From positions 95,482,001 to 95,546,000 of the forward strand of contig NC_086097.1 of the NCBI RefSeq assembly GCF_963921235.1: DNA of 64,000 nucleotides, read 5' to 3'. The DNA is from Mobula hypostoma. Lineage: Eukaryota. This document shows, piece by piece, positions 26,515-62,103 of this stretch. The notes beneath the pieces are model-generated. The model searched no databases and was not told the origin of the DNA. It was given only the letters and a program-made list of their open reading frames with translations. How positions within the stretch are numbered: position 1 is the stretch's first letter; each line of letters begins with the position of its first letter. Position numbers and translations under genes: made by a program.

Positions 26515-26782
26515 TGATATATTTACAGTGAATTTTGATAGGTTCTTGATTAGTAGGGCATCAAAGTTTACTGGGAGAAGGCAGGTTAATGGGATTAAGA
26601 ATGATAATAAATCAACCATGATGGAATTGAGAAGCCTAATTGATGGGCCAAATGGCCTAATTCTGCTCTTCTATGTTATGGTATTATGTCTTATTTTCTG
26701 AGTATGAAAAAACATGGGTCAGTAAGCATTACCCTCCCACCCAGATGGATGTGTTTTTTTACTGGTTTGTTTTCATCTACAA

Positions 26783-26990
26783 CAGTGGTTCACAACTTCC
26801 GGGCCGTGGTCCAATACTGCGCCGCGAAGCGTGCAGTGGTAGCCAGGACGCACCCAGTGCCGCCCGGCACCTAATTAATTAGCTTGTTTATTTCGGCTTT
26901 TTTCTTAAAGATGTGCTGGGTGCGTCCCAGCTACCACTGCACGTTTCACAGCCCAGTATTAGTCCACAGCCCGGAGGTTGGGGACCACTG
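26783..26990. mobile_element. hAT (Charlie-like) MITE, 208 bp
   Basis: TIRs CAGTGGTTCACAACTTCCGGGC / GCCCGGAGGTTGGGGACCACTG; 8-bp TSD ATCTACAA/CTCTACAA. Confidence 0.8.
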
Positions 26991-27256
26991 CTCTACAATC
27001 ATTAGCATTTCTGAAGCCGTGTTAATGTGATCTGATCCATCATAGCATTTCAATTTAATTGGTTATACTGCCTAAAGGGAAAAATATTGCAATCCTGGAA
27101 TCTATTTCATTTATATTTGTCATTGTCAAGCATCCGGAGGCCATTTATAAGCAGAGGAACAAAGCAATCACCAAAATCGGCACATTACAGGCAAGCAACA
27201 CACATCAAATTTGCTCGTGAACGCAGCAGGCCAGGCAGCATCTCTAGGAAGAGGTA

Positions 27257-27294
27257 CAGTCGACGTTTCAGGGCAAGACCCTTCATCAGGACTA
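27257..27294 (-). ncRNA. Minimal hammerhead ribozyme, left arm
   Basis: Minus strand TAGTC-CTGATGA-AGGGTCTTGCCCT-GAAA-CG-TC-GACTG; intact core. Confidence 0.75.
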
Positions 27295-27921
27295 ACTGAA
27301 GGAAGAGCTAGTAAGAGATTTGAAAGTGGGATGGGGAGGGGGAGATCCAAAATGATAGGAAAAGATAGAAGACAGGAGGGGGAGGGATGGAGCCAAGAGC
27401 TGGACGGGTGATTGGCAAAAGGGATATGAGAGGATCATGGGACAGGAGGCCCAGGGAGAAGGAAAAGGGGGAGGGGGGGAAAAACCCAGAGGATGGGCAA
27501 GGGGTATAGTCAGAGGGACAGAGGGAGAAAAAGGACAGAGAGAGAAAGAATGTGTGTATATAAATAAATAACGGACGGGGTACGAGGGGGAGGTGGGGCA
27601 TTAGCAGAAGTTAGAGAAGTCGATGTTCATGCCATCAGGTTGGAGGCTACCCAGATGGAATATAAGGTGTTGTTCCTCCAACCTGAGTGTGGCTTCATCT
27701 TTACAGTAGAGGGGGGCCATGGATAGACATATCAGAATGAGAATGGGATGTGGAATTAAAATGTGTGGCCACTGGGAGACCCTGCTTTCTCTGGTGGACA
27801 GAGCGTAGGTGTTCAGCAAAACGATCTCCCAGTCTGCGTCGGGTCTCGCCAATATATAAAAGGCCACATCGGGAGCACCGGACGCAGTATATCACACCAG
27901 CCGACTCACAGGTGAAGTGTC

Positions 27922-30636
27922 AGGTGGCGTTGCTGGTTAAAGATGAGATTAATGCAATAGAAAGGAAGGACATAAGCCGGGAAGATGTGGAATTGATATG
28001 GGTAGAACTGCATAACACTAAGGGGCAGAAAACGGTGGTGGGAGTTGTGTACAGGCCACCTAACAGTAGTAGTGAGGTCGGAGATGGTATTAAACAGGAA
28101 ATTAGAAATGTGTGCAATAAAGGAACAGCAGTTATAATGGGTGACTTCAATCTACATGTAGATTGGGTGAACCAAATTGGTAAAGGTGCTGAGGAAGAGG
28201 ATTTCTTGGAATGTATGCGGGATGGTTTTTTGAACCAACATGTCGAGGAACCAACTGGAGAGCAAGCTATTCTAGACTGGGTTTTGAGCAATGAGGAAGG
28301 GTTAATTAGCAATCTTGTCGTGAGAGGCCCCTTGGGTAAGAGTGACCATAATATGGTGGAATTCTTCATTAAGATGGAGAGTGACATAGTTAATTCAGAA
28401 ACAAAGGTTCTGAACTTAAAGAGGGGTAACTTTGAAGGTATGAGTCGTGAATTAGCTAAGATAGACTGGCAAATGATACTTAAAGGATTGACAGTGGATA
28501 TGCAATGGCAAGCATTTAAAGATTGCATGGATGAACTACAACAATTGTTCATCCCAGTTTGGCAAAAGAATAAATCAAGGAAGGTAGTGCACCCGTGGCT
28601 GACAAGAGAAATTAGGGATAGTATCAATTCCAAAGAAGAAGCATACAAATTAGCCAGAAAAAGTGGCTCACCGGAGGACTGGGAGAAATTCAGAGTTCAG
28701 CAGAGGAGGACAAAGGGCTTAATTAGGAAGGGGAAAAAAGATTATGAGAGAAAACTGGCAGGGAACATAAAAACTGACTGTAAAAGCTTTTATAGATATG
28801 TAAAAAGGAAAAGACTGGTAAAGACAAATGTAGGTCCCCTACGGACAGAAACAGGTGAATTGATTATGGGGAGCAAGGACATGGCAGACCAATTGAATAA
28901 TTACTTTGGTTCTGTCTTCACTAAGGAGGACATAAATAATCTTCCAGAAATAGTAGGGGACAGAGGGTCCAGTGAGATGGAGGAACTGAGCGAAATACAT
29001 GTTAGTAGGGAAGTGGTGTTAGGTGAATTGAAGGGATTAAAGGCAGATAAATCCCCAGGGCCAGATGGTCTGCATCCCAAAGTGCTTAAGGAAGTAGCCC
29101 AAGAAATAGTGGATACATTAGTGATAATTTTTCAAAACTCGTTAGATTCTGGACTAGTTCCTGAGGATTGGAGGGTGGCTAATGTAACCCCACTTTTTAA
29201 AAAAGGAGGGAGAGAGAAACCGGGGAATTATAGACCGGTTAGCCTAACGTCGGTGGTGGGGAAACTGCTGGAGTCAGTTATCAAAGATGTGATAACAGCA
29301 CATTTGGAAAGCAGTGAAATCATCGGACAAAGTCAGCATGGATTTGTGAAAGAAAAATCATGTCTGACGAATCTCATAGAATTTTTTGAGGATGTAACTA
29401 GTAGAGTGGATAGGGGAGAACCAGTGGATGTGGTATATTTGGATTTTCAAAAGGCTTTTGACAAGGTCCCACACAGGAGATTAGTGTGCAAACTTAAAGC
29501 ACACGGTATTTGGGGTAAGGTACTGATGTGGATAGAGAATTGGTTAGCAGACAGGAAGCAAAGAGTGGGAATAAACGGGACCTTTTCAGAATGGCAGGTG
29601 GTGACTAGTGGGGTACCGCAAGGCTCAGTGCTGGGACCCCAGTTGTTTACAATATATATTAATGACTTGGATGAGGGAATTAAATGCAACATCTCCAAGT
29701 TTGCGGATGACACGAAGCTGGGCGGCAGTGTTAGCTGTGAGGAGGATGCTAAGAGGATGCAAGGTGACTTGGATAGGTTGGGTGAGTGGGCAAATTCATG
29801 GCAGATGCAATTTACTGTGGATAAATGTGAAGTTATCCACTTTGGTGGCAAAAATAGGAAAACAGATTATTATCTGAACGGTGGCCGATTAGGAAAAGGG
29901 GAGGTGCAACGAGACCTGGGTGTCATTATACACCAGTCATTGAAAGTGGGCATGCAGGTACAGCAGGCGGTGAAAAAGGCGAATGGTATGCTGGCATTTG
30001 TAGCGAGAGGATTCGAGTACAGGAGCAGGGAGGTACTACTGCAGTTGTACAAGGCCTTGGTGAGACCACACCTGGAATATTGTGTGCAGTTTTGGTCCCC
30101 TAATCTGAGGAAAGACATCCTTGCCATAGAGGGAGTACAAAGAAGGTTCACCAGATTGATTCCTGGGATGGCAGGACTTTCATATGAAGAAAGACTGGAT
30201 GAACTGGGCTTGTACTCGTTGGAATTTAGAAGATTGAGGGGGGATCTGATTGAAACGTATAAAATCCTAAAGGGATTGGAGAGGCTAGATGCAGAAAGAT
30301 TGTTCCCAATGTTGGGGAAGTCCACAACAAGGGGTCACAGTTTAAGGATAAAGGGGAAGCCTTTTAGGACTGAGATTAGGAAAAACTTCTTCATACAGAG
30401 AGTGGTGAATCTGTGGAATTCTCTGCCACAGGAAACAGTTGAGGCCGGTTCATTGGCTATATTTAAGAGGGAGTTAGATATCGCCCTTGTGGCTACAGGG
30501 ATCGGGGGTATGGAGGGAAGGCTAGTGCAGGGTTCTGAGTTGGATGATCAGCCATGATCATAATAAATGGCAGTGCAGGCTCAAAGGGCCGAATGGCCTA
30601 CTCCTGCACCTATTTTCTATGTTTCTATGTTTCTAT
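27922..30636 (+). mobile_element. Young 5'-truncated CR1 LINE with open ORF2 (partial APE endonuclease plus RT)
   Basis: Uninterrupted frame to 30557 with GVVYRPP, MGDFN, SDHN, YRPVSLTS, LDFQKAFDKV, GVPQGSVLGP, KFADD. (TTTCTATG)n tail. TSD GTGTC at 27917-27921 and 30637-30641. Confidence 0.95.
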
Positions 30637-31102
30637 GTGTCGCCTCACCTGGAAGGACTGTCTGGGGCCCTGAATGGTGGTAAGGGAGGAAGTGTAAGGG
30701 CATGTGTAGCACTTGTTCCACTTACAAGGATAAGTGCCAGGAGGGAGATCAGTGGGGAGGGATGGGGGGACGAATGGACAAGGGAGTCACGTAGGGAGCA
30801 ATCCCTGCGGAAAGCAGAGAGAGAGGGGGAGGGAAAGATGTGCTTAGTGGTGGGATCCCGTTGGAGGTGGCGGAAATTACAGAGAATAATATGTTGGGCC
30901 CGGAGGCTGGTGGGGTGGTAGGTGAGGACCAGGGGAACCCTATTCCTAATGGGGTGACGGGAGGATGGAGTGAGAGCAGTTGTGCGTGAAATGAGAGAGA
31001 TGCGTTTGAGAGCAGAGTTGACGGTGGAGGAAAGGATTTTGTGCCCCTCACTCTCCCTTGACCATGACTCTGAGGCAATGCTGATAATGGAATTCCTTGT
31101 TC

Positions 31103-31828
31103 TGCTGGATATCACCATACATACTGTCTTTTTGCAATTAATAGATGACCCATTTTTGCACTTTCTTCAACAACTATATCAATTAAGTTTTACAGTTCTT
31201 CCTCCGTACTTGCAATTAACACAGTGTTATCTGCATATCTGAAATTATTGATGTTTTCACCACCAACTTTGATTCCCAAGATGTCTCTTATTTTTTGTAC
31301 TATTGTTTCACTGTACACATTAAACAAATCAGGGGAGAAAACATACTGTTGTCTATCTATCAATTGCAAAAAGACAGAATGTATGGTGATATCCAAAAAG
31401 AAAGAGAATCCAATCTGAAGGCTGAGAATAAACGGGGAAGACATAAAACAAGTACAGAACTTTTGCTACTTAGGAATCTGGGTGAAATCAGATGGCAGGT
31501 GCGAGATGGACATCAAAGAAGAACAGGGATGGCAAACGACACCTTTACGAGAATGAAGAGTATACTGACCAACACTAAACGAGGCATGACAACCCACCTC
31601 AGAGTACTGAAATGTTACGTTTATCCAGTTATGTAATATGGCTCAGAATGTTGGACAATATCTAGTAACATGAGGAAACGAATTGAAGCAGCAGAGATGT
31701 GGTTTTTGAGGAGGATGCAAAGAATATCATGGACAAAACGAATATCTAACGAGAATGTCATGAACAGAGCAAGCACAAAAAGAGAAATAATGTATCAGAT
31801 CATGAAAAGGCAACGTAACTTCATTGGA
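31103..31828. mobile_element. RTE-clade LINE fragment with 5' inversion
   Basis: Minus 31340-31103 encodes FSPDLFNVYSE...INNFRYADNTVLIAST. Plus 31351-31828 encodes LSINCKKTECMVIS...KRIEAAEMWFLRRMQRISWTKRISNENV. Confidence 0.85.
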
Positions 31829-33000
31829 AATACAAAATTCTCTGCGGATGCTGGGGTCAAAGCAACACGCACAACACGCTGGAGGAACTCAGCAGATCGG
31901 GCAGCATCCATAGAAATGAACAGTCAACGTTTTGGGCCAAAACCCTTCACCAGGACTGAAGAGGGAGGGGGCAGGGGCCCTATATAGGATAATGTGCTGG
32001 ATCCGGAGGCTGGTGGGGTGGTAGGTGAGGACAAGGGGAACTCTGTCCCTGTTGTGGTGACGGGAGGATGGGGAGAGGACCGAAGTGCGGGAAATGGAGG
32101 AGATGCGGGTGAGGGCATCATTGATGACGGCAGAAGGGAAACCACGATCCTTAAAGAAAGAGGTCATTTGAGATGTCCTGGAACGGAACGCCTCATCCTG
32201 GGAGCATATGTGGTGGAGACGGAGGAACTGGGAATAGGGAATAGCATTTTTGCATGTGGCAGGGTGGGAAGCGGTATAGTCGAGGTAGTTATGAGAGTCA
32301 GTGGGCTTATAGAAAATGTCAGTGGACAGTCTGTCTCCAGAGATGGAGGCCGAGAGATCGAGAAAGGGGAGCGAAGTGTCCGAGATGGACCAAGTGAATT
32401 TGAGGGCTGGGTGAAAGTTAGAAGTAAAATCGATGAAATTGACGAGCTCAGCATTAGTGCAGGAAGCAGCAACGATATAGTCGTCAATGTAGCGAAGGAG
32501 AAGTTGGGGAGCAGTACCAGTAAAGGTTTGGAGCATAGACTGTTCCACATAACCAACAAAGAGGCAGACAAAGCTGAGGCCCATGCGAGTGCCCATAGCT
32601 ACACCCTTGGTCTGAAGAAAGTGGGAAGAGCCAAAAGAGAAGTTATTAAGTGTGAGTACCAGTTCCACCAGCTGAAGGAGGGTAGTGGTGGTGGGGAACT
32701 GGTGAGGTCTATTGTCCAGAAAGTAGTGGAGGGCTTTGAGGACTTCTTGATGAGGAATGGAAGTGTATAAGGATTGGACATCCATAGTGAAAATGAAGCG
32801 GATGGGACCGGGGAACTGAAAGTCATTGAAGAGGTGGAGGGCATGGGATGTATCCCGGATGTAGGTGGGGTTTGATTTCCTTCTTCACCTTTCCTGCCTA
32901 TCCTATCCTCTCCTTGCTTCCCCTCCCCCACCCCATGATCTTTCCCCTTACTGGTTTTTCACCTGGAACCTACCAGTCTTCTCCTTCCCACCCTCATCCA
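31829..33000 (-). mobile_element. Second-subfamily PLE fragment (RT domain, internal deletion, inverted UTR piece at ~32873-33000)
   Basis: ORF 31889-32785: MDVQSLYTSIPH...QTKGVAMGTRMG...LRYIDD...LPFLDL...YKPT. The RT region joins directly to the terminus at ~31985. Confidence 0.9.
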
Positions 33001-33443
33001 TGTGCCCATCAAGAGTTTAATTGTTCCTACTGTGTCTGTCCTAAATTCAGTGACGGACGGGGTAGAAGCTATCCTCGAGCCTATTGGAAAGCGTTTTTGT
33101 GCTTTCCAATCTCCTGCCCGATGGGAGGGGGGGATAAGACAGAATATGGGAGAGGTCTTTGATTGTGCTGGCTGTTTTACTGAGGCAGTGAGAAATGCAG
33201 AAGAGTCCAAAGAGGAGAGGAAGATTTCTGTGATGTGCTCAGTTGTGTCCGTAACAACCTGCATTTTCCAGAAGTCACATGCTTGATCATGATGAGGTAG
33301 ATCGTGATGTCATTATGATCCAGTAACTGACCACAAGAAACTGCAGGCTGAGTGCAGTTCATCTGAGTGCAGACGGAGAGGCTAGTCTCCTTGAGGTGCT
33401 GAGCTGCTTCGTCAAGATTTTCTTAGAATTACGCACAAAATCT

Positions 33444-34280
33444 ATGGAGTTCTGCAAACTAAACAGGCGGGTGGTCCTTGGCCTGTCGATAGGCAGTGCT
33501 ACCATCATCATTGGCTGGTGGGCCTACCAGAATTTCGCCAAGAAGCGCCACCAAGCTGTGAAGGCCAAGCATGTAATCGGCACAGCTCAGCCAGTGGATT
33601 GCAAAGCGCAGTCCAAGGTTAGAAGCCAGAATATGGAGGAGGGGAGTATAGAATCAGGAGATGGAGGAAATGAGCAGGGGATCTCATCACAGGGACTGGC
33701 AGATCCAGGGCTAAGTCCTGAACCGGCTCCGGAAGATCGAGGGCTAAGTCCCGAACCGGCTCCGGAAGATCCAGGGCTAAGTCCCGAACCGGCTCCGGAA
33801 GATCCAGGGCTAAGTCCTGAACCGGCTCCGGAAGATCGAAGGCTAAGTCCCAAACCGGCTCCGGAAGATCGAGGGCTAGGTCCTGAACCGGCTCCGGAAG
33901 ATCGAGGGCTAAGTCCCAAACCAGCTCCGGAAGATCAAGGGTTCGGTCCCGAACCGGCTCCGGAAGATCCAGGGCTCGGTCCCGAACCGGCTCCGGAAGA
34001 TCGAGGGCTCGGTCCCGAACCGGCTCCGGAAGATCGAGGGCTTAGTCCCGAACCGGCTCCGGAAGATCGAGGGCTTAGTCCCGAACCGGCTCTGGAAGAT
34101 CGAGGGCCAAGTCCCGAACCGGCTCCGGAAGATCGAGGGCCTAGTCCCGAACCGGCTCTTGGGCATACCCAAACAGAGGCGACTGAACTGGAGCTGAGCC
34201 CAGTGGACGAACACTGGAATCGAGAGGATGAGGGGGAGGAAAATGGATGGGAGGGCAAAGGAACCATCAGAGATCAGTAG
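33444..34280 (+). CDS. Candidate first exon/ORF (278 aa): N-terminal signal anchor plus 14 x 11-aa Pro/Glu repeats; possibly pseudogenic
   Basis: MEFCKLNRR-VVLGLSIGSATIIIGWWAY-QNFAKKRH is a hydrophobic helix flanked by basic residues. An acidic disordered region follows. After the TAG at 34278-34280, exon-like purine-rich sequence continues to a possible donor AAG|GTAAAA at 34625/34626. Confidence 0.5.
   Translation: MEFCKLNRRVVLGLSIGSATIIIGWWAYQNFAKKRHQAVKAKHVIGTAQPVDCKAQSKVRSQNMEEGSIESGDGGNEQGISSQGLADPGLSPEPAPEDRGLSPEPAPEDPGLSPEPAPEDPGLSPEPAPEDRRLSPKPAPEDRGLGPEPAPEDRGLSPKPAPEDQGFGPEPAPEDPGLGPEPAPEDRGLGPEPAPEDRGLSPEPAPEDRGLSPEPALEDRGPSPEPAPEDRGPSPEPALGHTQTEATELELSPVDEHWNREDEGEENGWEGKGTIRDQ
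33702..34163 (+). repeat. 33-bp coding minisatellite, 14 units
   Basis: Unit GATC(C/G)AGGGCTAAGTCC(C/T)GAACCGGCTCCGGAA encodes D(P/R)GLSPEPAPE; 14 x 33 = 462 bp with no indels. Confidence 0.97.
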
Positions 34281-35762
34281 GAGCAGAAGGATGAAGAGAG
34301 GCTGGGGGGTGGGTCGGGTGACTTCACCAATGTGCAAGTGGGCATGAGGAGGGGAATAAAATTGGGCAAGAGAAAGAGCTCCCTGGAGGAGTCGGCTGGA
34401 GAGAGGAAGCGAATGAGAAAGTGGCAGACAAAACTCCAAAGGAGACAGCCAAGAGTAGGGCAGAGGATTGGAAGGGGACAACGCAGAGCTTGGAGAAGAG
34501 TTCTCAGATTTAGGGAACTGGTGCCTGAAGATGGGTCAAAGAAAGTAGGGAAATGGAAAGAGGAATCGTTTGATCCTGGAGGAAACACAGAAGTCTGGAT
34601 CCACAATCTTCTGAAGTCAATGAAGGTAAAAATAAATATATAGACACAATTGCCGTATCTTTTTTATATATAAAGGGGGCTGTGTTCCAAAGACTTTGGG
34701 GCACTGGAATATCCAAGTTGTAGAAGGCTACTGATCAAATGCTGATTTCTGGGGCTAGTATCGATGACATTATTGAAATGGTGGGTCAAAGGGCCTGTTC
34801 CTGCGCAGATCTCTCGATGACACGTCATGACCTCACAGATCCTTTGTTTACCTGCAGTCTCCCACCCACATTAATTATCTCACTCCCCTTGCCACTGGTA
34901 CGGCACAGTGGAGAAGCAGTTAGTGCGACGCTCCACAGGGCCAGTGATCTCCGATCAGGGTGCAGTTCCACTGCTCTATGTAAGGAGTTTGTACATTCTC
35001 CCCAAGACACCATGGAGTTCCTCCAAGTTCAGTTGAAAGCTTCCAATCTCCCCTCCCCCCACCCCGCCCTACTTCCCTCGTATCGATTGTGCAGAGGAGA
35101 TTCACCAGGATGCTGCCTGGGCTAGTTTAACCCAACCTCATGTAGTCTTATGAGGACAGGATGAGCACACAAGGGCTTTTCTCTTTGGAGTGAAGGACGG
35201 TGAGAGGGGACTTGAGAGAAGTGTACAAGGTCATAACAAACATAGATCGAGTGGATAGCCAGAGATATTTTCCCAGGGAGGGAATGGCAAATAGCAGGGA
35301 GTGTACACAGAGAGTGGTGTGTGTGGGGAACCACCCCGGGGGTTGTGGTAGAGGCAGATACATTAGGTACATTTAAGAAATACCTGTGCAGAGCACATGA
35401 ATGATAGAAAAAGGGAGTGTTCTATCTGGGGAAAGAGTTATATTGATCTTAGAACAGGTTAAAAGTTTGACACAATACTGTGGGCTGAAGGGCCTGTGGT
35501 GTGCTCTGGTGTTCTATCCCACTCATTGCAATACCTTCCCCTCTCCTACCCATTAACACCCTTCCTCTGTCCTCCACTGTTCTCCCCTACCTTCCTAACT
35601 CCTGACTACTTACCCCTGCCTCACCAGATCCTCACTCTCCACTTGTCTGTTCCATCACTCCTTCCCTCCCTTCCACTTCCCCTTCACTACCCACTCCCCC
35701 CACCCTCCACTTCCATTCTGCCATCTCTCCATCAGATGCGTCCTCTCCGTGTTCCTCCCAAG

Positions 35763-35927
35763 GCCTCAAGAATGACGACGATATTCAAGTCATGCTCAAG
35801 GGTACTCACATGCTGAAGATCAAATCCAGCTCATGGATGAAGTCACGCTACAACAAACTGAATGAAGACTGTTGGACGGTGCAGTATAATTCCAAAAAGA
35901 TCCTGAAGTCAGCCAGGAGCCAAATGT
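35763..35927 (+). pseudogene. Phospholipase C-delta-like PH-domain exon (orphan fragment)
   Basis: ccaag|GC CTC...ATG T|gtgagt, 165 bp, phase 1-1. It encodes (G)LKNDDDIQVMLKGTHMLKIKSSSWMKSRYNKLNEDCWTVQYNSKKILKSARSQM, a gapless match to recalled PLCD1 [55 protein letters not shown]. An alternative in-frame acceptor lies at 35736. Confidence 0.85.
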
Positions 35928-36231
35928 GTGAGTGTTGCTCAAGTCTTGGAGGGTTGGTGTGACAGCAAACGTAGTTTTAAAAAATTGTCTCGGGCACCAA
36001 CAAGTGCAGGGATTAGTTCTTGATTCCTGGTATGGCACCACGCTGAGGCCAGTAGAGTTACTGCTTCATGGCACCAGTGACCTGGATTCTATCTTTTATT
36101 GATTCTATTTTATTTGGAGAGTGCAGACAGATCCTTCTGGCCCAAAAGGCCACACCACCCAGCGGTCCACCTGTTTAACGCCAGACAAATCACAGGACAA
36201 CTCACCTGCCCTGCTGTGTTCCTCCAGCATT

Positions 36232-36292
<61 letters not shown>

Positions 36293-36306
36293 TCTGTGTG
36301 AGTGTG

Positions 36307-36338
<32 letters not shown>
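36232..36338. repeat. (TG)n microsatellite inside a PLE terminus
   Basis: TTCCTCCAGCATTG(TG)n...TTGCTC. A (CA)n run at 36673-36697 lies in the inverted partner terminus. Confidence 0.95.
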
Positions 36339-37319
36339 CTTTGCTCAGGAAAACAACTATCCAATTCATTCAGCATTCCACAGGGGGAAGAACTTTCAGA
36401 CAATATGACCCATATGTTGCAATAAGCTCCTCTCTTTCTCACCTCCTGGTCCATTTTCATTTCTCTGTTCATCCAGGTTTCCCATAAACATGACATGAGT
36501 CATATCCATCAAGCAGGAGCTACAGAAACCTGAAGCCCCACACCTCACAACCCTAATCTTTACAGTTTAGCAACACAATGATGCCTTTGCACAAGAGATT
36601 CTGCAGATGGTAGAACAACACACACAAAATGCAGAATGAACTCAGCAGGTCAGGCAGCATCCATAACTGTTTACACACACACACACACACACACACAGGC
36701 TGAGACCCGTCTGCAGGACTCAGCCTGATGGAGAATGTTAACCCTTTCATTCCTGGAATCATTCCCATGAACCTCCTCTGGGCCCTCTGAAAGGCCTTTG
36801 AGCATTTTAAATGTCACTGATTATCTGAAAATTGCTTCAGCGGATTTAGATTATTAAATTATTTTAATTTTGTTTAAGCATACTTCACAACATATTTAAG
36901 TGCTTGAAATTAAATAAAACAAAGAAAGATAAACAATCTACTGCCCGCATGTTTTCAGTTAAGATCAGTGACCACATTCGAATGAATGGGATCACAATAC
37001 ATACACCAGCTGTTGCTGGGGTAAGCTTGAGGGACCGGACACAAAGTGCATCCAGACCTTCAATAGGTCCAATGTGGAAGGTATGAGCTCAAGTTCATTC
37101 CCATCTGCTGTGTTGTCACACAGTTAGTCAATAATTCCCTTGGGAACTGTTGTCTGAAAGCTGGGTTGATTTCCAAGTCAGGATATTGGTGCTGGTATTT
37201 GTATTGGATTAATATTGTCACATGTACTGAGGTACAGTGAAAAGCTTGTCTTGCATACTGGTCATACGCATCAATTCATTACACAGTGCATTGGGGTAGA
37301 ATAAGGCAAAACAATAATG

Positions 37320-38304
37320 TTAGGATGTTGGGCTGTAGTATGATGGACTTCACTGTGCAGTTTGAGAAGGAGAAGCTAAAGTCTGATGTATCAGTATGAT
37401 AGTAGAGTAAGAGGAATTACAGAGGCATGAAAGGGGAGCTGGTCAAAGTTGACTGGAAGGGACACTGGCAGGAACAACACCAGAACAGCAATGGCTGCAG
37501 TTTCTGAGAGCAATTCGAAAGGGTAGATGCATCCCAAAGATGAAGAAGTATTTTAAAGGGAGGATGAGACAACTGTCACTGACAAGGGAAGTCAAACACA
37601 GCATAAAGACAAAAGAGAGAGTGCACACTATTTAGCAAAAGTTAGAGGGAAGTTAGAGGATTGGGAAACTTGAAAGCCAACAGATGCCAACTGAAAAAGC
37701 AATAAAGAGAGAAAAGATGAAATATCAATGTAAGCTAGCCAATAATGTTAAAAAAAAGCATACAAAAAGTTTTTTCAGATATGTGAAGAGTAAAAGAGGC
37801 AGGAGTGAATATTGGACCACTGGAAAATTATGCTAGAGAAGTAATAATGGAGGACAAAGAAATAGCAGATGAACTGAATAATTATTTTACATCAGTTTTC
37901 ACTGTGGAAGACACCAGCAGTTTGCCAGAAGTTCAAGAGTGTCGGGGGCAGAACTGAGTGTAGTTGCTATTACTAAGGAGGAGATGGTCGGGAAACTCAA
38001 AGTTCTGAAGGTCAATAAGACAACTGGACGAGATGGACTATACCCCAGGGTTCTGAACGAGGTAGCTGAAGAGATTGTGGAGGCATTGATAGTGATCTTT
38101 CAAGAATCAGGAGATTCTGAATAGTTCTGAAGGAAAAGAAAATTTCAAATTTCACTCCACTCTTTAAGATGGGAGGGAGGCAAAAGATGGGAAATTATAG
38201 GTCAGTTAGCCAGTGGTTGGGAAGATGTTGGAGTCCATTATTAAGGAGGAGGTTCCAATGTAACCAGAATCATACAATAACATCGGACTTCATTAAGGGA
38301 AAAT
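37320..38304 (+). mobile_element. CR1 ORF2 fragment, decayed
   Basis: GKLKVLKVNKTTGRDGLYPRVLNEVAEEIVEALIVIFQES; ends abruptly at ...AAGGGAAAAT where the PLE begins. Confidence 0.85.
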
Positions 38305-40296
38305 CCCAAGATCCACAAACCTGCCTGTCCAGGTAGACCCATTGTCTCAGCTTGCTCCTGCCCCACTGAACTCATTTTTGCATACCTCAACACTATTTTA
38401 TCCCCCCTTGTTCAATCCCTTCCTACCTCTGTTGGTGACACTTCTCATTCTCTGAAATTTTTCGATGATTTTAAGTTACCTGGCCACCACCGCTTTATTT
38501 TCACCTTGGATGTCCAGTCCCTTAATACTTCCATCCCCCAGCAGGAAGGTCTCAAAGCTCTCCGCTTCTTTTTGGATTATAGACCTAACCAGTTCCCCTC
38601 TACCACCACTTTGCTCCATCTAGCTGAATTAGTCCTTACTCTTAATAATTTCTCCTTTGGCTCCTCCCATTTCCTCCAGACTAAAGGTGTAGCTATGGGC
38701 ACCCGTATGGGTCCCAGCTATGCCTGCCTTTTTGTTGGCTTTGCGGAACAATCCATGTTCCAAACCTATACTGATATCTGTCCCCCACTTTTCCTTCGCT
38801 ACATCGACGACTGCATTGGCGCTGCTTCCGGCACGCATGCTGAGCTTGTTGACTTCATTAACTTTGCCTCCAACTTTCACCCTGCCCTCAAGTTTACCTA
38901 GTCCATTTCCGACACTCCCTCCTATCTCTAGATCTTTCTGTCTCTATCTCCGGAGACAGCTTATCTACTGATGTCTACTATAAGCCTACTGACTCTTACA
39001 GTTATCTGGACTATTCCTCTTCTCACCCTGTCTCTTGCAAAAATGCTATCCCCTTCTTGCAATTCCTCGTTCTCCGCCACATCTGCTCTCAGGATGAGGC
39101 TTTTCATTCCAGGTCGAGGGAGATGTCCTCCTTTTTTAAAGAAAGGGGCTTCCCATCCTCCACCATCAACTCTGCTCTCAAACGCATCTCCCCCATTTCA
39201 CGCAATCTGCTCTCACTCCACCCTCCCGCCACCCCACTAGGAATAGAGTTCCCCTTGTCCTCACCTACCAAACCTCCAGCCTCCGGGTCCAACATATTAT
39301 TCTCCGTAACTTCCGCCACCTCTAATGGGATCCCACCACTAAGCACAACATCTTTTCCTCCCCCCCTCTGCTTTCCGCAGGGATCACTCCCTACGCGACT
39401 CTCTTGTCCATTCGTTCCCCCCATCCCTCCCCACTGATCTCCCTCCTGGCACTTATCCTTGTAAGCGGAACAAGTGCTACACATGCCCTTACACTTCCTC
39501 CCTTACCACCATTCAGGGCCCCAGACAGTCCTTCCAGGTGAGGCAACGCTTCACCTGTGAGTCGGCTGGGGCGATATACTGCGTCCGGTGCTCCCGATGT
39601 GGCCTTCTATATATTGGCAAGACCCGACGCAGACTGGGAGATCATTTTGCTGAACACCTACGCTCTGTCCACCAGAGAAAGCAGGATCTCCCAGTGGCCA
39701 CACATTTTAATTCCACATCCCATTCCCATTCTGATATGTCTATCCACGGCCTCCTCTACTGTAAAGATGAAGCCACACTCAGGTTGGAGGAACAACACCT
39801 TATATTCCATCTGCATAGCCTCCAACCTGATGGCATGAACATTGACTTCTCTAACTTCTGCTAATGCCCCACCTCCTCCTCGTACCCCATCCATTATTTA
39901 TTTATATACACACATTCTTTCTCTCTCTCTCTCTCCTTTTTCTCCCTCAGTCCCTCTGACTATACCCCTTGCCCATCCTCTGGGTTTTTCCCCCCCCCTC
40001 CCCCTTTTCCTTCTCCCTGGGCCTCCTGTCCCATGATCCTCTCATATCCCTTTTGCCAATCACCCATCCAGCTCTTGGCTCCATCCCTGCCCCTCCTATC
40101 TTCTCCTATCATTTTGGATCTCCCCCTCCCCCCTCAAATCTCTTACTAGCTCTTCCTTCAGTTAGTCCTGACGAAGGGTCTCGGCCCGAAACGTCGACTG
40201 CACCTCTTCCTAGAGATGCTGCGTAGCCTGCTGCCTTCACCAGCAACCTTATGTGTGTTGCTTGAATTTCCAGCATCTGCAGAATTCCTCGTGTTT
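38305..40296 (+). mobile_element. Penelope-like element, right arm (RT, GIY-YIG, 3' UTR, terminus), disrupted
   Basis: PKIHKPACPGRPIVS...DVQSLNTSIP...GVAMGTRMGPSYA...LRYIDD, stop at 38899-38901, then IYCVRCSRCGLLYIGKTRRRLGDHFAEH. Ends CCTCGTGTTT. Confidence 0.93.
40163..40200 (+). ncRNA. Minimal hammerhead ribozyme, right arm
   Basis: TAGTC-CTGACGA-AGGGTCTCGGCCC-GAAA-CG-TC-GACTG; stem II GGG/CCC; predicted cleavage after C40195. Confidence 0.8.
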
Positions 40297-43057
40297 ACAT
40301 TACAGGCAAGGGCTGGTAAGTGGAAAGCAAGAGACAGGCAATAACCATCTCCAATAAGAGAGCAGTTCTAACTGCCTATCCTTGACACTTAATAACATTA
40401 TAATTGTTCGAGAATCAATTATCCAAGTAATGAACTTGCACTTCTTCCAGTCTAGCGTATTGCCCAATGTGTCTCTTCTACAGCAAAGAAACCAAACACA
40501 GATCAGCTGAGAGCTTTGTTGATCAATTATTTTCAATCTACAGGGGCAACTTGAATCTCCCTATTGCATCCCACTTTTAATTGGCTATCTTATTCCTAAC
40601 TTATCTATCCTTGGTCTCCTGCAATGTTATAACGATGCCCAGCGCCCTATCACATCTTCCATCCTGGGATGCTGCAGCCTTCCAGGCTCAAAATTGAATT
40701 CCCCAACCTCACATAACTTGCATTCTTTGTCACAAGCAATCTCTGCAACCAGTCATCTACCTCTGACGTTGGCTAGTCCTTTTTCTCCCCATCTCCTGGG
40801 CATTTGTCATTAACTTGGATTATGTAACACTGGTTGTTTTCTCTGCAGCTTCACTCTCTGTCTGCCCTCATTTCAAAGTTTAGTTCATTTTCTCTCCAAC
40901 TCACCTCCCCATCAACCAGATGACCTCTGCAACATCTCCACTGCAACTCCACCTCATCAAAGATATTCCCTTTGTCCTGTCTATTCCTCCCACAGCCTCT
41001 CTGTAACTTAAAACCAAGCTGTCTTCTCTCATCAACCTGAAATATAAACTCTATTTCTTTCTCCAAAGATGTTTCACCGACCTACTAAGTAAGTTTTCTC
41101 TGTAATTTGTTTCTATTGGAAATACACTGCCATTCTTTAATGCGATTCTCTAACCCTTGAACTCCTCCTTCAACAGCATTGTCAGGGTTTCTTCACCATA
41201 GAATCAGAATCAGGTTTATTATCACCAGCATGTGTCGTGAAATTGTTAACCATAGGACTGCAACACTTCAAGGCAGCAGATAAATACCAACATCCTAAGG
41301 GAAATCAGGGATTGGCAATAAATGTCAGCTTCACCATTGGCACCCTTATCCCCAAAGCAGTGAATTTAAAAACATTCAAAATAATGATTATCTAGAAAGT
41401 ACCGCATCAAAGCCATAGAGCAAAGTAAAAACAATCTCTACCGAGGGAGTCTAATAATGGCCAAAATTATTCTGACAAGATCAGTCTGGCTAAGCATTCA
41501 AATTAAGATTGAGATTACCCCAATGTTTTCCAAAGGTAAGAAGAGATTTTAAAAAGTTGCCAAGTCAGAGCTTGCTGCTAATGTTCTGTGCAAAGAAAAT
41601 GAATCAAGGCATAACGAAGCCTGGTTCAGTTGCCCGGATACATTCAACATCTGCTGTCTACATAGTACAATTTAATATTAGTGTACTCAAACTTAGTGTT
41701 CAATCCAAACATTTTGCAAAATTAGTGGGAGGGAGACATTAATCAACTCATCTAGTCTGGATTCAAGCTGATGTCTCCATAGATCAGAATCTTAAGCCTG
41801 ATGGACGAACAGTCACAGGATTTGCAAGTCAAGATGCATTGCTCCAAAGAAAATGCATTTCCCTTATTAACCTATTCAAAAGTTTCTGACTGTGTACACC
41901 ATTTTTCTTTTGTTTGCAGGCTTCTCCAGTAGATGCTATGCGGGTAACTTTCATGGTAGTATAAGCACTCCTTCTAACTTACTTGCAGCAGTTTTTGGAG
42001 CAACAACCTCAGAAAATGAAGTAAATTTGAAATACATCCAAATTCTGACAACTCACCATGTGTTTAATACTTTACTATTATATGGCACCCTTAATGTACA
42101 AACTCCAAAAATAAGTAATGGCTTCTATTAGACTTCTCCTTTTTCACAGAAATGTTTTTTTAGCTCATTTGCCAAAGCTACAATGGCAAATTCAATTTGA
42201 AACAACTACAATTGTGCAAATTCCAGCTTTTAAACTCTTTCCATTAGAAATATGCTCTTGTAAATTGGTACAAGTCTATTTCAAGGTTGTAAAATGCCAT
42301 ATTTCCAGCACTCTACATAAGCAATTATTAAATCAGATTTTCCTAAATCAGTTTTTGTAGACACCTCCATTCAGTTTGAATTGTTTCCAAGGAAATGATT
42401 ATTGAGTCATAACTCCTCCAGTTTAATGTTCTATGAAGTGGCTGAAGGCAAGTTCCCCTCTCCTTTCCTTAAGATTTTAAGCCTGAACCCAGTTGCTACA
42501 AATTGTTTAGTGCCTCTAAAAAGTAACTTACTCAGTCAACTCAGAGAGCTGAATATTCTTTCTGGAGGAGTTGATATACAAAAGTTTAATAGCACGGCAA
42601 TGTGATGAACTCCTTAAGGCTTTTTTCTTCAAGGTGGAGCTCACAAGCAAGCCAGTTCAACCTGGCAAGATTGAATGGAACCAGGAACAATCAATGCATA
42701 GTGGAGTTGGGATAAGAATCAGTTACCTGGAGATGAGCAAAATTGAGAACGTTCATCTCAGAGGGGACTATCCAAGAAGATTTCCCAGTTCTGCCTGGTA
42801 TCCGCTCAAGAAGGCTCACTTCAAGACACACAGGAACAGGATTCCCAAAGACCTCCACAGATGAGCCTCATGGCCAAAGCAGCAGACAAAACATTAAGAT
42901 TATAGGTAGGGTGAATGTGGACATTTTTTTCTCTCTGGATGGTGAATCAAAAACTAGAGGATATAGGTTTAGATGAGAAGGGAGTTTAATAGGAACCTGA
43001 GGGGCAGCTTTTTCCACTCAGAGAGAGGTCAGCGTATAAAGTATAATGAGCTGCTGG

Positions 43058-51061: not shown

Positions 51062-54000
51062 AACTTTATTTATTAAAAAAAACCTAAGGAATAAACAGTG
51101 CAAAGTGCTGTACATTCTTTGCGTCATTTGGTCAATACATTCAGTGAAGTTGGCACATTATTTCCTCCATAGCACCATTACCACATGATCCCTGCAGTGA
51201 TGCACCTTTCCATTGTTTAAGGGACTTGTCCAACGCACTCAAACCATCAATATCCAGTAGCAGAAGGACCCCAGACTGCGGTCCTTCTCCATAAAGTCTT
51301 TGTGTTGACTGCAGCAAGCTTCAGTGTGCCCCTCATCACATCCTCCTGCAGCCTTAAATGTGTCATTGAGCAGCATTCCCTTAAGGACATCTCACTGTGC
51401 TGGAAGACCAAAAAGATTCCAACAGACTTCCACTGAGCTGATTATCTTCCAGCCGCACTTAACATCTACGTGTGTCCTCGGGAACAGCCAGCAGATCAGA
51501 CAGTTCTCTGATACCAAAAGCTCAGAATGAATGATGACAAGGACCTTTGTACCTCTCGCTGTCCTCTTAGCAAAGCTGGCTCCTCCTCAGTGCAGTCGCA
51601 CCAAAGGTAGCATTCATTGGAAGTAATAATCCAAACGTACCAAAAGACCTGACCAGAAGAGCCCCAGTCACTGCCAGCCAAGTGAGGTCTTTATACTGTT
51701 TGGCAAATTCTGGCAATGAGAGACTTTGCCATTTGATTTGAATAGAATGCTCAGGGAACTACCCTACAGTATCTATCATATCCTTGTCACACAATATTTC
51801 CAAATACTCTGTGTTGATGTCTGCCTGATGAACTTGTGGTCCACGAGGATGTTTGCTTAGAACTTTTCCACAGAGGGAGGCAGACAAGTGGGTCGCAGTT
51901 AGGAGTGGGAAGGGGAAGTGTCAGGTACTAGAGAGTACCCCAGTGGCTGTGCCCCTTGACAATAAGTACTCCTGTTTGAGTACTGTTGGGGGGGGGTCAG
52001 CTTAGCTGGGGAAGCAACAGTGGCCATGCCTCTGGCACAGAGTCCGGCCCTGTAGCTCAGAAGGGTAGGGAGAGGAAGAAGAGGGCAGTATTAATAGGGG
52101 ACTCCATAGTTAGGGGGTCAGATAGGCGATTCTGTGGGCGCAGTCAGGAGACGCAGATAGTAGTTTGCTTCCCTGGTGCCAGAGTCTGGGATGTTTCTGA
52201 TCGTGTCCAAGATAAGTGGGAGGGTGAGGAGCCAGGGGTTGTGGTACATATAGGTACCAATGACATAGATAGGAAAAGGGAAGAGGTCCAAAAAGGAGAA
52301 TATAGGGAGTTGAGAAGAAGGACCGCAAAGGTAGTAATCTCAGGATTACTGCGTGTGCCATGCGACAGTGAGAGTAGGAATGGAACGAGGTGGAGGATAA
52401 ATGCGTGGCTAAGGGATTGGAGCAGGGGGCAGGGATTCAAGTTTCTGGATCATTGGGACCTCTTTTGGCGCAGGTGTGACCTGTACAAAAAGGACGGGTT
52501 GCACTTGAATCCTAGGGGGACCAATATCCTGGTGGGGATATTTGCGAAGGCTACTGGGGAGACTTTAAACTAGAATGGTTGGGGGGTGGGAATCAAATTG
52601 AAGAGACTAGGAGAGAGGAGGTTAGTTCACAAATAGAGAAAGCTAGTAGACAGTGTGTGAGGGAGGACAGGCAGGGGACAGAGAATGGGAGCACTCAGAC
52701 CAAAGATGTAGGGGAGAAGGAAGAAAAAGATAACAAAGTTGTTTGCACCATTAGGGATAAACAGAGAGTTTCTTAAATTCATCTATTTTAATGCTAGGAG
52801 TATTGTACGAAAGGTGGATGAGCTTAGAGCATGGATTGATACCTGGAAATATGATGTTGTAGCTATTAGTGAAACATGGTTGCAGGAGGGGTGTGATTGG
52901 CAACTAAATATTCCTGGATTTTGTTGCTTCAGGTGTGATAGAATCGGAGGGGCAAGAGAGGGAGGTGTTGCATCGCTTGACAGAGAAAATATTACAGCAG
53001 TGCTTTGGCAGGATAGATTAGAGGACTCGTCTAGGGAGGCTATTTGGGTGGAATTGAGGAATGGGAAAGGTGTAGTAATGCTTATAGGGGTGTATTATAG
53101 ACCACCTAATGGGGAGCGAGAATTGGAGGAGCAAATTTGTAAGGAGATAGCAGATATTTGTAGTAAGCACAATGTTGTGATTGTGGGAGATTTTAATTTT
53201 CCACATATAGACTGGGAAACCCATTCCATAAAAGGGCTGGATGGTTTGGAGTTTGTAAAATGTGTGCAAGATAGTTTTTTGCAGCAATACATAGAGATAC
53301 CAACTAGAGAAGGGGCAATGTTGGATCTCCTGTTAGGGAATGAGATAGGTCAGGTGACGGAGGTTTGTGTTGGGGAGCACTTCGGGTCCAGTGATCACAA
53401 TGTCATTAGTTTCAATCTAATTATGGAGAATGATAGGACTGGACCCAGGATTGAGATTTTTGATTGGAGAAAGGCTAACTCTGAGGAGATGCAAAAGGAT
53501 TTAGAAGGAGTGGATTGGGACAATTTGTTTTATGGGAAGGATGTAATAGAGAAATGGAGGTCATTTAAAGGTGAAATTTTGAGGGTACGGAATCTTTATG
53601 TTCCTGTTAGGTTGAAAGGAAAGGTTAAAAGATTGAGAGATCCATGGTTTTCAAGGGATATTGGAAACTTGGTTTGGAAAAAGAGAGAGTTCTACAATAC
53701 ATATAGACAGTTTGGAGTAAATGAGGTGCTCGAGGAATATAAAGAATGTAAAAAGAATCTTAAGAAAGAAATTAGAAAAGCTAAAAGAAGATATAAGGGT
53801 GCTATGGCAAGTAAGGTGAAAATAAATCCCAAGGGTTTCTACAGTTATATTAATAGAAAAAGGATAGTGAGGGATGAAATTGGTCCCTTAGAGAATCAGA
53901 GTGGACAGCTATGTGTGAAGCCAAAAGAGATGGGGGCAGATTTTGAACAATTTTTTTTCTTCGGTTTTCACTAAGGAGAAGGATATTGAATTGTGTAAGG

Positions 54001-56600
54001 TAAGGGAAACAAGGTGGGTAGGTATGGAAACTATGATGATTAAAGAAGAGGAAGTACTGGCGCTTTTAAGGAATATAAAAGTGGATAAGTCTCCAGGTCC
54101 TGACAGGATATTCCCTAGTACCTTGAAGGAAGTTAGCGTGGAAATAGCAAGGGCTCTGACAGAACTATTTCAAATGTCATTAGAAACGGAGATGGTGCCG
54201 GAGGACTGGCGTACTGCTCATGTTATTCCATTGTTTAAAAAGGGTTCTAAGAGTAAACCTAGCAGTTATCGGCCTGTGAGTTTGACGTCAGTGGTGAGTA
54301 AATTGATGGAAAGTATTCTTAGAGATGGTATATATAATTATCTGGATAGACAGGGTCTGATTAGGAACAGTCAACATGGATTTGTACGTGGAAGGTCATG
54401 TTTGACAAATCTTATTGTATTTTTTGAAGAAGTTACTAGGAAAGTTGACGAGGGTAAAGCAGTGGATGTTGTCTATATGGACTTCAGTAAGGCCTTTGAC
54501 AAGGTTCCACATGGAAGGTTAGTTAGGAAGGTTCAATCGTTAGGCATTAATATCAAAGTAGTAAAATGGATTCAGCAGTGGCTGGATGGGAGATGCCAGA
54601 GAGTAGTGGTGGATAACTGTTTGTCAGATTGGAGGCTGGTGACTAGTGGTGTGCCTCAGGGATCTGTACTGGGTCCACTGTTATTTGTCATATATATTAA
54701 TGATCTGGATGATAGGGTGGTAAATTGGATAAGTAAGTATGCAGATGATACTAAGATAGGTGGAGTTGTGGATAATGAAGTAGGTTTTCAAAGCTTGCAG
54801 AGAAATTTAGGCCAGTTAGAAGAGTGGGCTGAAAGATGGCAAGATGGAGTTTAATGCTGATAAATATGAGGTGCTACATTTTGGTAGGACTAATCAAAAT
54901 AGGACATACATGGTAAATTTTAGGGCATTGGAGAATGCAGTAGAACAGAGGGATCTCGGAATAATGGTGCATAGTTCCCTGAAGGTGGAAGCTCATGTGG
55001 ATAGGGTGGTGAAGAAAGCTTTTGGTATGCTGGCCTTTATAAATCAGAGCATTGAGTATAGGAGTTGGGATGTAATGTTGAAATTGTACAAGGCATTGGT
55101 AAGGCCAAATTTGGAGTATTGTGTACAGTTCTGGTCACTGAATTATAGGAAAGATGTCAACAAAATTGAGAGAGTACAGAGGAGATTTAAATAGAATGTT
55201 ACCTGGGTTTCATCTCCTAAGTTACAGAGAAAGGTTGAACAAGTTGGGTCTTTATTCTTTGCAGCGTAGAAGGTTGAGGGGGGACTTGATAGAGGTATTT
55301 AAAATTATGAGGGGGATAGATAGAGTTGACGTGGATAGGCTTTTTCCATTGAGAGTGGGGGAGATTCAAACAAGAGGACATGAGTTCAGAGTTAAAGGGC
55401 AAAAGTTTCGGGGTAACATTAGGGGGAACCTCTTTACTCAGAGAGTGGTAGCTGTGTGGAACAAGCTTCCAGCAGAAGTGGTTGAGGCAGGTTCGATGTT
55501 GTCATTTGAAGTTAAATAGAGGGTTAAATGGAATGGACGGTTATGGGCTGAGTGCAGGTCGGTGGGACTCGGTGAGAGTAAGAGTTCGGCACGGACTAGA
55601 AGGGCCGAGATGGCCTGTTTCCGTGCTTTAATTGTTACATGGTTACATAAAGACAGGAGGTGAGGTAATGTCCAACTGACTGGACCATTGTACGACAATG
55701 GAGCCAGAAACATCCTTCAAACACTGGGGACAAGTCGAACCTCAACACCTGCTGACATTGACATCTTTGGTCCCAAGCACAACTTGGTGCAGACATCAGG
55801 CTGAGCTGGATATTGAGTATGTTGTTGACCATGTTGTCCAGAGATTTGCACATCCTGACCCATCAAATTCAATGGATCCACGGAGGAATCTGAAGCCTGG
55901 GCAGAGGAGTAGGACAAGACACACCTGCACCAAGTACAACAGCACAAAAAGCATTTTGCCCCTGATAAACAGGTTCTTCCCAGATATTGAGAGGGAGCAT
56001 TATTCCCACAGTCCCAATTTTTGTTTAACCGTTCCTTTCTGCTCAAATCAATTCTTGCAACACATCTCAGCCCCTCCTAACCTGATCCCCAGCATCTTCA
56101 AGTAGTCAGATCTAATGTCAAAGGGAATGGTGAACTGGTCAGGCCAACCGCCAGAGCATGGTCTTGCTTTCCCTGCAGTTTAACTCTGGCATCTGATGTC
56201 AACTCAAACCGGACACAGATGCTGGATCAGAACAGAAGACAATAATGACTTCCATGCAGAGGGAAGTTCTGACCTGAATGCTTCCACTGCTTGGTAATGT
56301 CATCCCTCTTATGCTCTCATCCTTCCTGGTGGATTTGTCAAAGAATTCTATGCAACACACAAATAAGACATGTTAGAGTGGACAATCCTGCCAAGACTAG
56401 ACGTTATGGAGTAACTATCTGTTTCCCACCCACTGATTTGGACTGCATACAAGTATGCGTCAGACAGTTGGATCCAATCCCTGATCCTCACCCGAAAGCC
56501 CATTTTGGACGGCACATCCATTGTGTACATGTGTGATATCCTGTTGCAGGCCTTCCCCTGTTCCAAACTGACCATGGTAACATAGATGCTGACATACTAA
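51062..56600 (-). mobile_element. Old L1/Tx1-like LINE remnant split by the CR1 at 51873-55648
   Basis: Degenerate LINE-like sequence on both sides of the CR1, with a poly(A)-signal-like end near 51065. No clean ORF; family assigned from nucleotide resemblance only. Confidence 0.4.
51873..55648 (+). mobile_element. Near full-length CR1 LINE: ORF1 SGNH esterase (51986-52573) and disrupted ORF2 (~52770-55519)
   Basis: ORF1 has VLIGDSIVRG, VVHIGTND and DGLHLN. ORF2 has YFNARSI, ISETW, YYRPP, GDFN, SDHN, DFSKAFDKV, GVPQGSVLGP and KYADD. Frameshifts at ~53945 and ~54845, stop at 55192-55194; (ATGGTTAC)-type tail. Confidence 0.95.
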
Positions 56601-61919: not shown

Positions 61920-62103
61920 CGGAATGGAGAATTCTTCTGCCAAATACTTTAGCATTGCAGCTTCGCTCAATAGCAGGTTACTGCGCTCTGAAAGGTTACC
62001 CTGAAGTTGCGTGTCAAATTCCTTTCGAATGACTGACGCAACCGAATCCACTACAATCAATTTCACCCCTTTCAAGATAACATCATCTTCCAGGGACTCG
62101 ACT
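61920..62103 (-). CDS. RAD51B: RAD51B internal coding exon (Walker B region; equivalent to human exon 7)
   Basis: Minus strand reads pyrimidine tract-ctag|A GTC GAG...ATT CCG|gtaagc, 184 bp. Translation (R)VESLEDDVILKGVKLIVVDSVASVIRKEFDTQLQGNLSERSNLLLSEAAMLKYLAEEFSIP matches RAD51B as I recall it (IESLEEEIISKGIKLVILDSVASVVRKEFDAQLQGNLKERNKFLAREASSLKYLAEEFSIP). Confidence 0.95.

Follow-up and report, generated by a model that had tools for sequence, protein, structure and literature searches.

A PLC-delta PH-domain exon in a devil ray genome belongs to a multi-copy, intron-retaining cassette that was very probably inserted by a Penelope-like element

How did half of a phospholipase C-delta PH domain, still framed by splice sites, come to lie among the repeats of a devil ray contig, and is it part of a gene? 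The stretch in which it lies, here called the window, spans 64,000 nucleotides (C1:95482001-95546000 of the 3.48-Gb Mobula genome, where C1 is contig NC_086097.1). Protein similarity marks the genome as ray-like, with 97% identity to a Mobula birostris protein over 39 residues. An earlier note, made from these letters, had described a 165-bp stop-free exon with an AG acceptor and a GTGAGT donor, and this description was borne out: the exon, hereafter exon A, occupies 35763-35927 on the plus strand, is in phase 1 at both ends, and lies between an AG at 35761-35762 and the GTGAGT at 35928. It encodes the first half of the PLC-delta1 PH domain, and its 55 codons align without gaps, as had also been claimed, to residues 3-57 of the rat protein 1MAI (phmmer, E = 2.5e-14 among 177,635 sequences), a score at which the resemblance is not due to chance. 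Pfam returned no match to exon A alone, whether at E<=0.1 or at E<=0.01, and its PH_12 profile matched only proteins that also contain the next exon (exon B). Taking the first Gly as residue 12, we found all six of the residues that had been listed as retained (K30, K32, W36, R40, S55, and K57). We assume that W36, R40, S55, and K57 are PIP2/IP3-binding positions of PLC-delta1, a role for which a literature check found no supporting paper. K30 and K32 are described as needed for PIP2 binding (PMC9968946). Elsewhere in the exon the window copy has W52 replaced by Q and Y42 by N, where the parent gene identified below keeps W and Y. Contrary to the note, exon A does not lack a reading frame of its own, as it lies within a stop-free frame of 118 codons. 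The second acceptor that had been proposed is real: an AG at 35734-35735, in frame and 27 nt upstream, is found in all three C1 copies inspected and in none of five other copies, which like the parent read CTGAT or CTGCT at this site. In the C1 subfamily, then, an ancestral branch-point-like CTGAT has become CAGAT and supplies an in-frame upstream acceptor, a change that could have shifted or weakened splicing.

Exon A is no orphan, as the note had held it to be, because exon 1 of the same cassette is present upstream at 33444-34625 on the plus strand, identified by its translation, by comparison with sister copies, and by its homologue in the parent (C5:222128681). This PLCD1-derived exon runs from an ATG through a hydrophobic, anchor-like N-terminal segment (hydropathy peak 1.63 in the window, 2.02 in the parent), Pro/Glu repeats, and a basic region to a donor GT at 34626, and includes a 33-bp tandem array of 13.9 copies at 33701-34158 on the same strand (Tandem Repeats Finder). 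In the window it is broken by a TAG at 34278 and a 1-nt deletion near 34599; it is open up to the phase-1 donor in 5/5 C1 sisters and broken in all six of the C45 and C36 copies inspected. The idea that exon 1 comes from an unrelated anchored gene was ruled out by its presence both in the parent and in a full-length ray PLCD1-like protein. Searched at E<=0.001, the parent's exon 1 turned up no longer proteins bearing it, and two further protein matches to exon 1 were low-complexity chance hits. Both the ray parent (C5:222128300-222130000) and a full-length ray paralogue begin with a hydrophobic anchor-like segment followed by a long acidic spacer, an arrangement that, to our knowledge, has no counterpart in mammalian PLC-delta1.

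The claimed lack of later PLCD exons held: the second PH exon and the EF-hand, X, Y, and C2 regions were unmatched within the 64-kb window, and the nearest X-box match on C1 lies at 99.48 Mb on the minus strand. With neither complete PH, EF-hand, X, Y, and C2 exons nor an open reading frame from exon 1, the locus does not encode a full enzyme. The proposed location inside a RAD51B intron fared less evenly. A minus-strand RAD51B exon is indeed present at about 61920-62103 (E = 3.5e-20; 61914-62081 aligns to human residues 199-253), and an earlier Rad51-family match lies 6 kb past the window end. The next RAD51B exon was found neither by Pfam Rad51 nor by peptide motifs within the window, and a degenerate pattern gave three matches in the genome, none of them on C1; since that exon was not located, the intronic position of exon A is one that we infer. 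A second Rad51-family gene lies at C1:96.10-96.12 Mb on the plus strand, about 0.55 Mb past the window.

Exon A has many relatives. A genome search gave at least 84 matches among 92 candidates, a count that takes in ordinary full-length PLC-delta genes and partial matches, and exon B follows 1-4 kb downstream in most of the well-scoring copies. An equivalent search with the X-box gave 56 matches of 82 candidates, none of them near most exon A copies; the exceptions are at C5:222.2, C18:108.9, two C91 loci, C1:155, C5:121.5, and C45:78.5. The closest full-length gene is PLCD1-like, at C5:222.13-222.21 Mb, with an anchor-like first exon, exon A, exon B, and X-box exons in that order. In a tree of 37 exon rows (4/41 were omitted, two with deletions and two mis-framed), this parent clusters with the cassette family, apart from three full-length PLC-delta loci on C18 and C91, on a branch whose support of 83/94 is not starred. 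The cassette resembles PLC-delta1 (1MAI and the C5 parent) in the length, phase, and sequence of its PH exon and shares the anchor-like first exon of the ray parent, whereas it has no EF-hand, X, Y, or C2 exons and carries a GC donor at exon B in most copies.

These comparisons sustain the view that the locus duplicates, in truncated form and with introns kept, the 5' end of a PLC-delta gene, and they alter how it came about. Parental intron flanks are kept around both exons A and B: parent and copy are 79% identical over 418 columns, in an alignment that takes in 210 bp or more of the upstream intron and about 40 bp of the downstream one, though the cassette introns measure about 1.1 kb and 0.9-2.4 kb vs 11 and 31 kb in the parent. 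PLCD1 origin therefore stands, while the immediate source is a multi-copy cassette family rather than the parent itself. The truncation has two parts of different age—the rest of the PH domain went in a deletion private to the window copy, and the lipase part was missing from the family's ancestor. In the sister regions compared, the unit reads PLE2, flank, exon 1, exon A, exon B, flank, PLE2 on a single strand, where PLE denotes a Penelope-like element and PLE1 and PLE2 are two families of these. The ancestral cassette is PLCD1 exon 1 and PH exons A and B, with short introns, between direct PLE2 copies, and its units form both tandem arrays and dispersed insertions; at C45:49.5 Mb the unit is repeated every 8 kb.

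The family also has a distinctive 3' end. In every cassette row but one of the codon-model set, the exon-B donor is GC rather than GT, and with the donor lost the frame stays open for about 80 more codons, up to a stop that the copies share. A Hypanus sabinus RefSeq model (XP_059845814) carries the same tail of about 80 codons, so the cassette is older than the split between stingrays and devil rays. Searching the genome with this model gave 98 matches, 35 of which extend into the tail (one stop-riddled C54 row excluded); exon B and the tail lie in one piece in 27 copies, and 19/27 are free of stops. Older clusters of the family lie on C52, C40, C54, C76, C22, C50, C70, and C166.

What carried the cassette into the window can be read from the insertion's ends. 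Exact 14-bp direct repeats, ACATTACAGGCAAG, lie at the two element tips, 27182-27195 and 40297-40310 (both on the plus strand), enclosing 13,101 bp, or an insertion of about 13.1 kb; we estimate the chance of such a 14-mer at both tips as about 5e-6 over 441 position pairs. Immediately inside these target-site duplications (TSDs) are outward-facing PLE1 terminal repeats, the right tip being 36 nt longer. The left arm, inverted (27196-27920, minus strand), holds the 3' part of a GIY-YIG frame and the terminal repeat, matches 39546-40264 in inverse orientation at 92.7%, and forms the short end, without a tail and with a 4-nt overlap with the TSD. A CR1-type LINE at 27923-30637 (plus strand; Pfam RVT_1 and Exo_endo_phos), whose open frame of 938 codons at 27741-30557 encodes endonuclease and RT, is nested in this arm and is not PLCD cargo; the arm's sequence picks up directly on its far side, and TGTC flanks it at both ends. 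This LINE is young, and several other cassette insertions are likewise broken up by copies of it with 94-97% identity. Beyond the LINE, the inner left arm (30638-31031, minus strand) is 5'-truncated, matches 39156-39547 at 91.4%, and joins the donor flank through about 10 nt of filler.

The cargo between the arms is in two halves of opposite orientation, the interior running on the minus strand over 27196-32995 and on the plus strand over 32991-40296. An inverted donor segment at 31041-32995 (minus strand), made of donor flank, a PLE2 terminal repeat, and an internally deleted PLE2 RT, is sense-oriented and upstream of exon 1 in sister loci; it ends at a head-to-head junction at 32991-32995, where segment maps indicate that 468 bp of donor sequence are missing between the halves. 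The PLE1 tips and the nested CR1 excepted, each half corresponds to a sense-strand stretch of the C1 donor, and in that donor the two stretches are separated by 468 bp. To the right of exon A, segment comparison with sisters places a 9,464-bp deletion at a 5-bp microhomology (ATGTT, 36735-36739, plus strand), which took exon B, its tail, and the downstream PLE2 and which is private to the window among the five C1 loci with the right-hand flank. A hairpin (about 36694-36730, z -3.5) lies just before this junction. A Helitron-type end at 36739, where ten sister loci cease to match, was considered and rejected, as the deletion junction is private to the window. The sequence that follows (36740-38280, plus strand) comes from the C1 donor locus, whose 3' flank travelled as cargo; it is 96-100% identical to the sister at C1:97.1 Mb and is confined to the five C1 loci.

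The right PLE1 arm (38281-40296, plus strand) carries degraded RT and GIY-YIG frames and a terminal repeat, and forms the long end with its 36-nt tail. Owing to this degradation, its matches to RVT_1 (E = 1e-3) and GIY-YIG (E = 9e-4) both score under the curated Pfam cut-off; by these Pfam matches, the arm has the order of an EN+ PLE, RT followed by C-terminal GIY-YIG. Its terminal repeat contains CTGANGA...GAAA with a short stem (fold z -1.6), presumably a hammerhead-like motif, and Rfam gave no hits on the window at gathering score. Compared with the 97.1-Mb sister the arm is 89-96% identical, and it shares 15/20 donor-specific variants in its first (5') kilobase and 19/49 beyond, a pattern that fits copying which began on a fresh PLE1 copy and then passed to the donor.

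Related insertions show the same anatomy. We examined both tips of three events, out of about 35 tail-bearing copies: the window, a 19.9-kb PLE2 insertion at C45:63.28-63.30 Mb (TSD 13/14), and the C1 founder, a 22.7-kb PLE2 insertion at 97.1 Mb (TSD 15/15, or 14/15 at 98.0 Mb). All three have a TSD at both tips and a one-sided tail (36, 36, and 32 nt), and in 3/3 the short end is on the inverted side and the tail on the direct side. Given the density of PLE and CR1 copies in this region, adjacency means little and only TSDs count. When the founder's flanks are mapped to further copies of a single old CR1 end, they fall within -19 to +9 bases of each other; the same flank-contiguity test gave no adjacency for the C45 flanks, and in the window the two flanks do not make up one repeat between them. 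The source of the window copy was the C1 founder insertion together with its 3' flank, and because it carries that flank, a PLE2 insertion must have been followed by a PLE1 insertion—unlike the PLE2-bounded founder, the window copy is bounded by PLE1 and has a new 14-bp TSD. Its donor loci are found on the same contig, at distances of 1.5-2.6 Mb. Among the C1 sisters, those at 97.1, 98.03, and 98.09 Mb have flanks in common and are segmental duplicates (identity between 98.03 and 98.09 Mb is about 98.5% over kilobases), and the window differs from its sisters by 2.3-2.8% in introns. An identical head-to-head junction of PLE2 and flank occurs at C45:63.282-63.286 and at C1:98.090-98.094 Mb, in opposite orientation to the cassette.

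The explanation that we prefer, with a probability of roughly 0.6, is that a PLE made the insertion by intron-retaining twin priming on an RNA template. The PLE1 enzyme would have made a staggered 14-nt cut at the target and started reverse transcription from PLE1 terminal repeats on each strand; a single long sense transcript of the donor locus, unspliced, would then have served as template for the extension of both cDNAs. Such twin priming would leave the 5' part inverted with 468 bp lost at the turn, and a microhomology jump would have skipped 9.5 kb including exon B. The resulting copy would yield no functional protein, with exon 1 broken and the PH domain halved. The parts of this account differ in strength. 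That exon A belongs to a PLCD1-derived cassette and that the window copy is a pseudogene, given that the private 9.5-kb deletion removed the second PH exon, we consider very likely, and we are equally confident that a PLE made the insertion. That the cargo was templated by RNA rather than DNA is probable, and here the evidence pulls both ways. In its favor, both arms copy the sense strand of the donor and break 468 bp apart; against it, the variant-sharing switch in the right arm is partial rather than clean, and an RNA exceeding 12 kb would have had to escape splicing at good splice sites and read through several terminal repeats. That introns are kept, as the note had observed, does not exclude retrotransposition: the locus is no processed pseudogene, having introns and ends that are PLE terminal repeats instead of poly(A), and it is nonetheless a TSD-bounded insertion of Penelope type.

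If DNA served as the template, two short PLE1 cDNAs at the staggered cut would have invaded nearby donor DNA, with repair synthesis and microhomology jumps supplying the rest. Introns would then be retained with no call for an unspliced transcript, donors 1.5-2.6 Mb off on the same contig would suit local copying, and the mosaic of donor and fresh PLE in the right arm, like the microhomology or filler at junctions, would be expected. It accounts less readily for two halves that copy the sense strand outward from points 468 bp apart, which a single RNA explains directly, for a cassette in sense orientation between direct PLE2 copies in all mapped units, and for family members spread over several contigs; on balance we regard DNA-templated capture as unlikely, if a serious competitor. 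Far less probable is segmental duplication, or recombination between the abundant PLE copies, with the arms and the direct repeat incidental. Duplication has certainly acted on the family, as seen in the near-identical 98.03- and 98.09-Mb loci and in the flanks shared on both sides by 97.1 and 98.03 Mb, and the C45:49.5-Mb array could expand by unequal crossing over, but a TSD exactly at both tips with a one-sided tail in every event examined speaks against it, as do window flanks common to no sister region compared.

Could the window copy instead be a working nested gene whose exon A yields a short peptide? The exon has no stop, its splice sites are intact, it keeps K30 and K32, and it differs from its nearest sister by one non-synonymous and two synonymous changes. 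The copy is, however, only about 2.5% diverged from its sisters, so that an intact 165-bp exon is expected in the absence of selection, exon 1 has a stop and a frameshift, and exon B is lost, with half a domain remaining. Four read runs were placed on 26600-40900, one of which (X1) may be the source sample. In two that we presume to be RNA-like, depth was 1-5 over the exons, contigs crossed the introns unspliced, and no splice joint at the exons was among the joints listed, in an output swamped by repeats. We hold a working gene to be highly improbable. Least probable of all is an assembly artefact: the region is made of high-copy repeats and no contig from these runs spans it, but the copy differs by 2-4% from all sisters, has private junctions, and shares its right junction with a second organism. 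The contigs from DNA runs of organisms A and B, which begin at 40274 and 40275 and hence hold the PLE tail joined to TSD and flank, show this junction filled, with 12 differences in 626 bases in organism B. No empty pre-insertion site was found among the DNA contigs of these two organisms, both of which are filled.

The nearest known kind appears to be the copying of an intron-bearing host gene by a PLE, to which the ray case would add a vertebrate, serial, and multi-copy example. In a rotifer, an intron-containing NRPS gene was copied by a PLE with a TSD (PMC3846280; review PMC6431247), and PLEs are described as retaining introns (PMC3846280). Both cases involve a host gene with introns that is a member of a multigene family, direct and inverted PLE terminal repeats, and a TSD. 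The rotifer insertion is one protein-coding instance, verified by an empty allele and with an 8-bp TSD, alongside a second, older one without that proof; the ray insertions, in contrast, are in a vertebrate, have TSDs of 14-15 bp with no empty site seen, carry long RT/endonuclease arms along with the cargo, and involve two PLE families in series and about 35 cassette copies. Insertions of EN+ PLEs are described as having an inverted 5'-truncated copy and a one-sided tail of 30-40 bp (PMC8557442; PMC11167929), and purified anole PLE protein, modelled as a dimer, cleaves and extends both strands (PMC11167929). The ray insertions agree with this canonical form in the inverted arm, the one-sided 32-36-nt tail, the TSD, and RT with C-terminal GIY-YIG, and depart from it in the window by about 7 kb of non-PLE1 cargo between the arms, in inverted and direct halves. 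Twin priming and transduction are also features of L1, where the 5' part is inverted with a small loss at the turn, a TSD is formed, and host flank is carried along. The window insertion shares all four; unlike L1, it has no poly(A) end, keeps introns, carries its cargo 5' of the element end, and has element terminal repeats at both tips. Our literature searches turned up neither a vertebrate case of a PLE copying a host gene nor a PLCD1 expansion in rays, though genome-paper supplements could hold one.

How PLEs transpose and why they keep introns are treated as open questions in this literature (PMC3846280, PMC8557442, PMC11167929). The ray insertions carry unique cargo with a known donor, which allows strand, break points, and template jumps to be traced in them, and RNA- and DNA-template models differ in their genome-wide predictions. 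Exon A itself is a dead fragment, yet it marks serial, intron-retaining PLE amplification in a vertebrate. If the process were general, PLEs would be an overlooked source of intron-containing vertebrate gene duplicates normally credited to DNA-level duplication, and intron retention by itself would not exclude retrotransposition.

Does any member of the family still function? Codon models gave omega = 0.56 for 19 distinct cassette exon A sequences and 0.06 for four full genes; fixing omega at 1 for the cassette costs about 6 units of 2*delta-lnL, the exon A sequences having been picked as top protein hits, which biases the estimate towards constraint. Between subfamilies, dN of 0.08-0.17 equals or exceeds the intron divergence of 0.06-0.10, and second codon positions, compared in 15 copies, show no less divergence than introns (0.135 vs 0.13), with W36 and R40 each kept in 10/15. 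A 1-nt deletion in the tail is common to 5/5 C1 sisters and is offset upstream by a +1 indel in three copies and a -5 indel in one, leaving one copy unrestored, a frame-restoring pattern that we spotted in hindsight. Predicted RefSeq models containing the cassette exist for Mobula and Hypanus. On these sequences the family would be evolving mostly under relaxed constraint, possibly with a functional subset, and it may encode a natural, tethered PLC-delta1 PH lipid sensor. Tentatively, and at rather less than even odds, we suggest that PLEs have acted in rays as serial amplifiers of gene fragments, handing a single intron-bearing cargo on between PLE families, and have built a lineage-specific family of lipase-less, membrane-anchored PH proteins, the intact members of which would be translated and serve as tethered PIP2/IP3 buffers or as competitors of PLC-delta1. 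This suggestion concerns the family shared by stingrays and devil rays and its intact members, such as the C1 sisters, the window copy being a dead by-product that preserves a record of the mechanism.

Several further loci were recorded along the way. An exon 1 copy at C18:107744583, 88% identical to that of the window and with no exon A match nearby, is a further truncated insertion. Within the parental region, exon B and its flanks occur twice (C5:222.17 and 222.25 Mb), 78.6 kb apart and identical over the overlap read, reflecting either a recent duplication or an assembly duplicate. Longer PLCD1-like clusters at C1:155.2-155.5 Mb, C5:121.2-121.6 Mb, and C45:78.5 Mb include X-box exons, so that full or near-full PLCD1 duplicates have expanded too. 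PH and X-box regions share single open frames of 844-883 codons at C5:167.14, C91:35.50, and C18:146.19 Mb, each probably, we assume, the large exon of a PLC-like (PRIP) gene. Within the window, a second inverted pair of PLE1 terminal repeats lies at its very start (1-786; 2-97 vs 688-783, 96% identical), and a LINE at 51980-55519 has an ORF1 with an SGNH/GDSL esterase followed by frameshifted endonuclease and RT frames.
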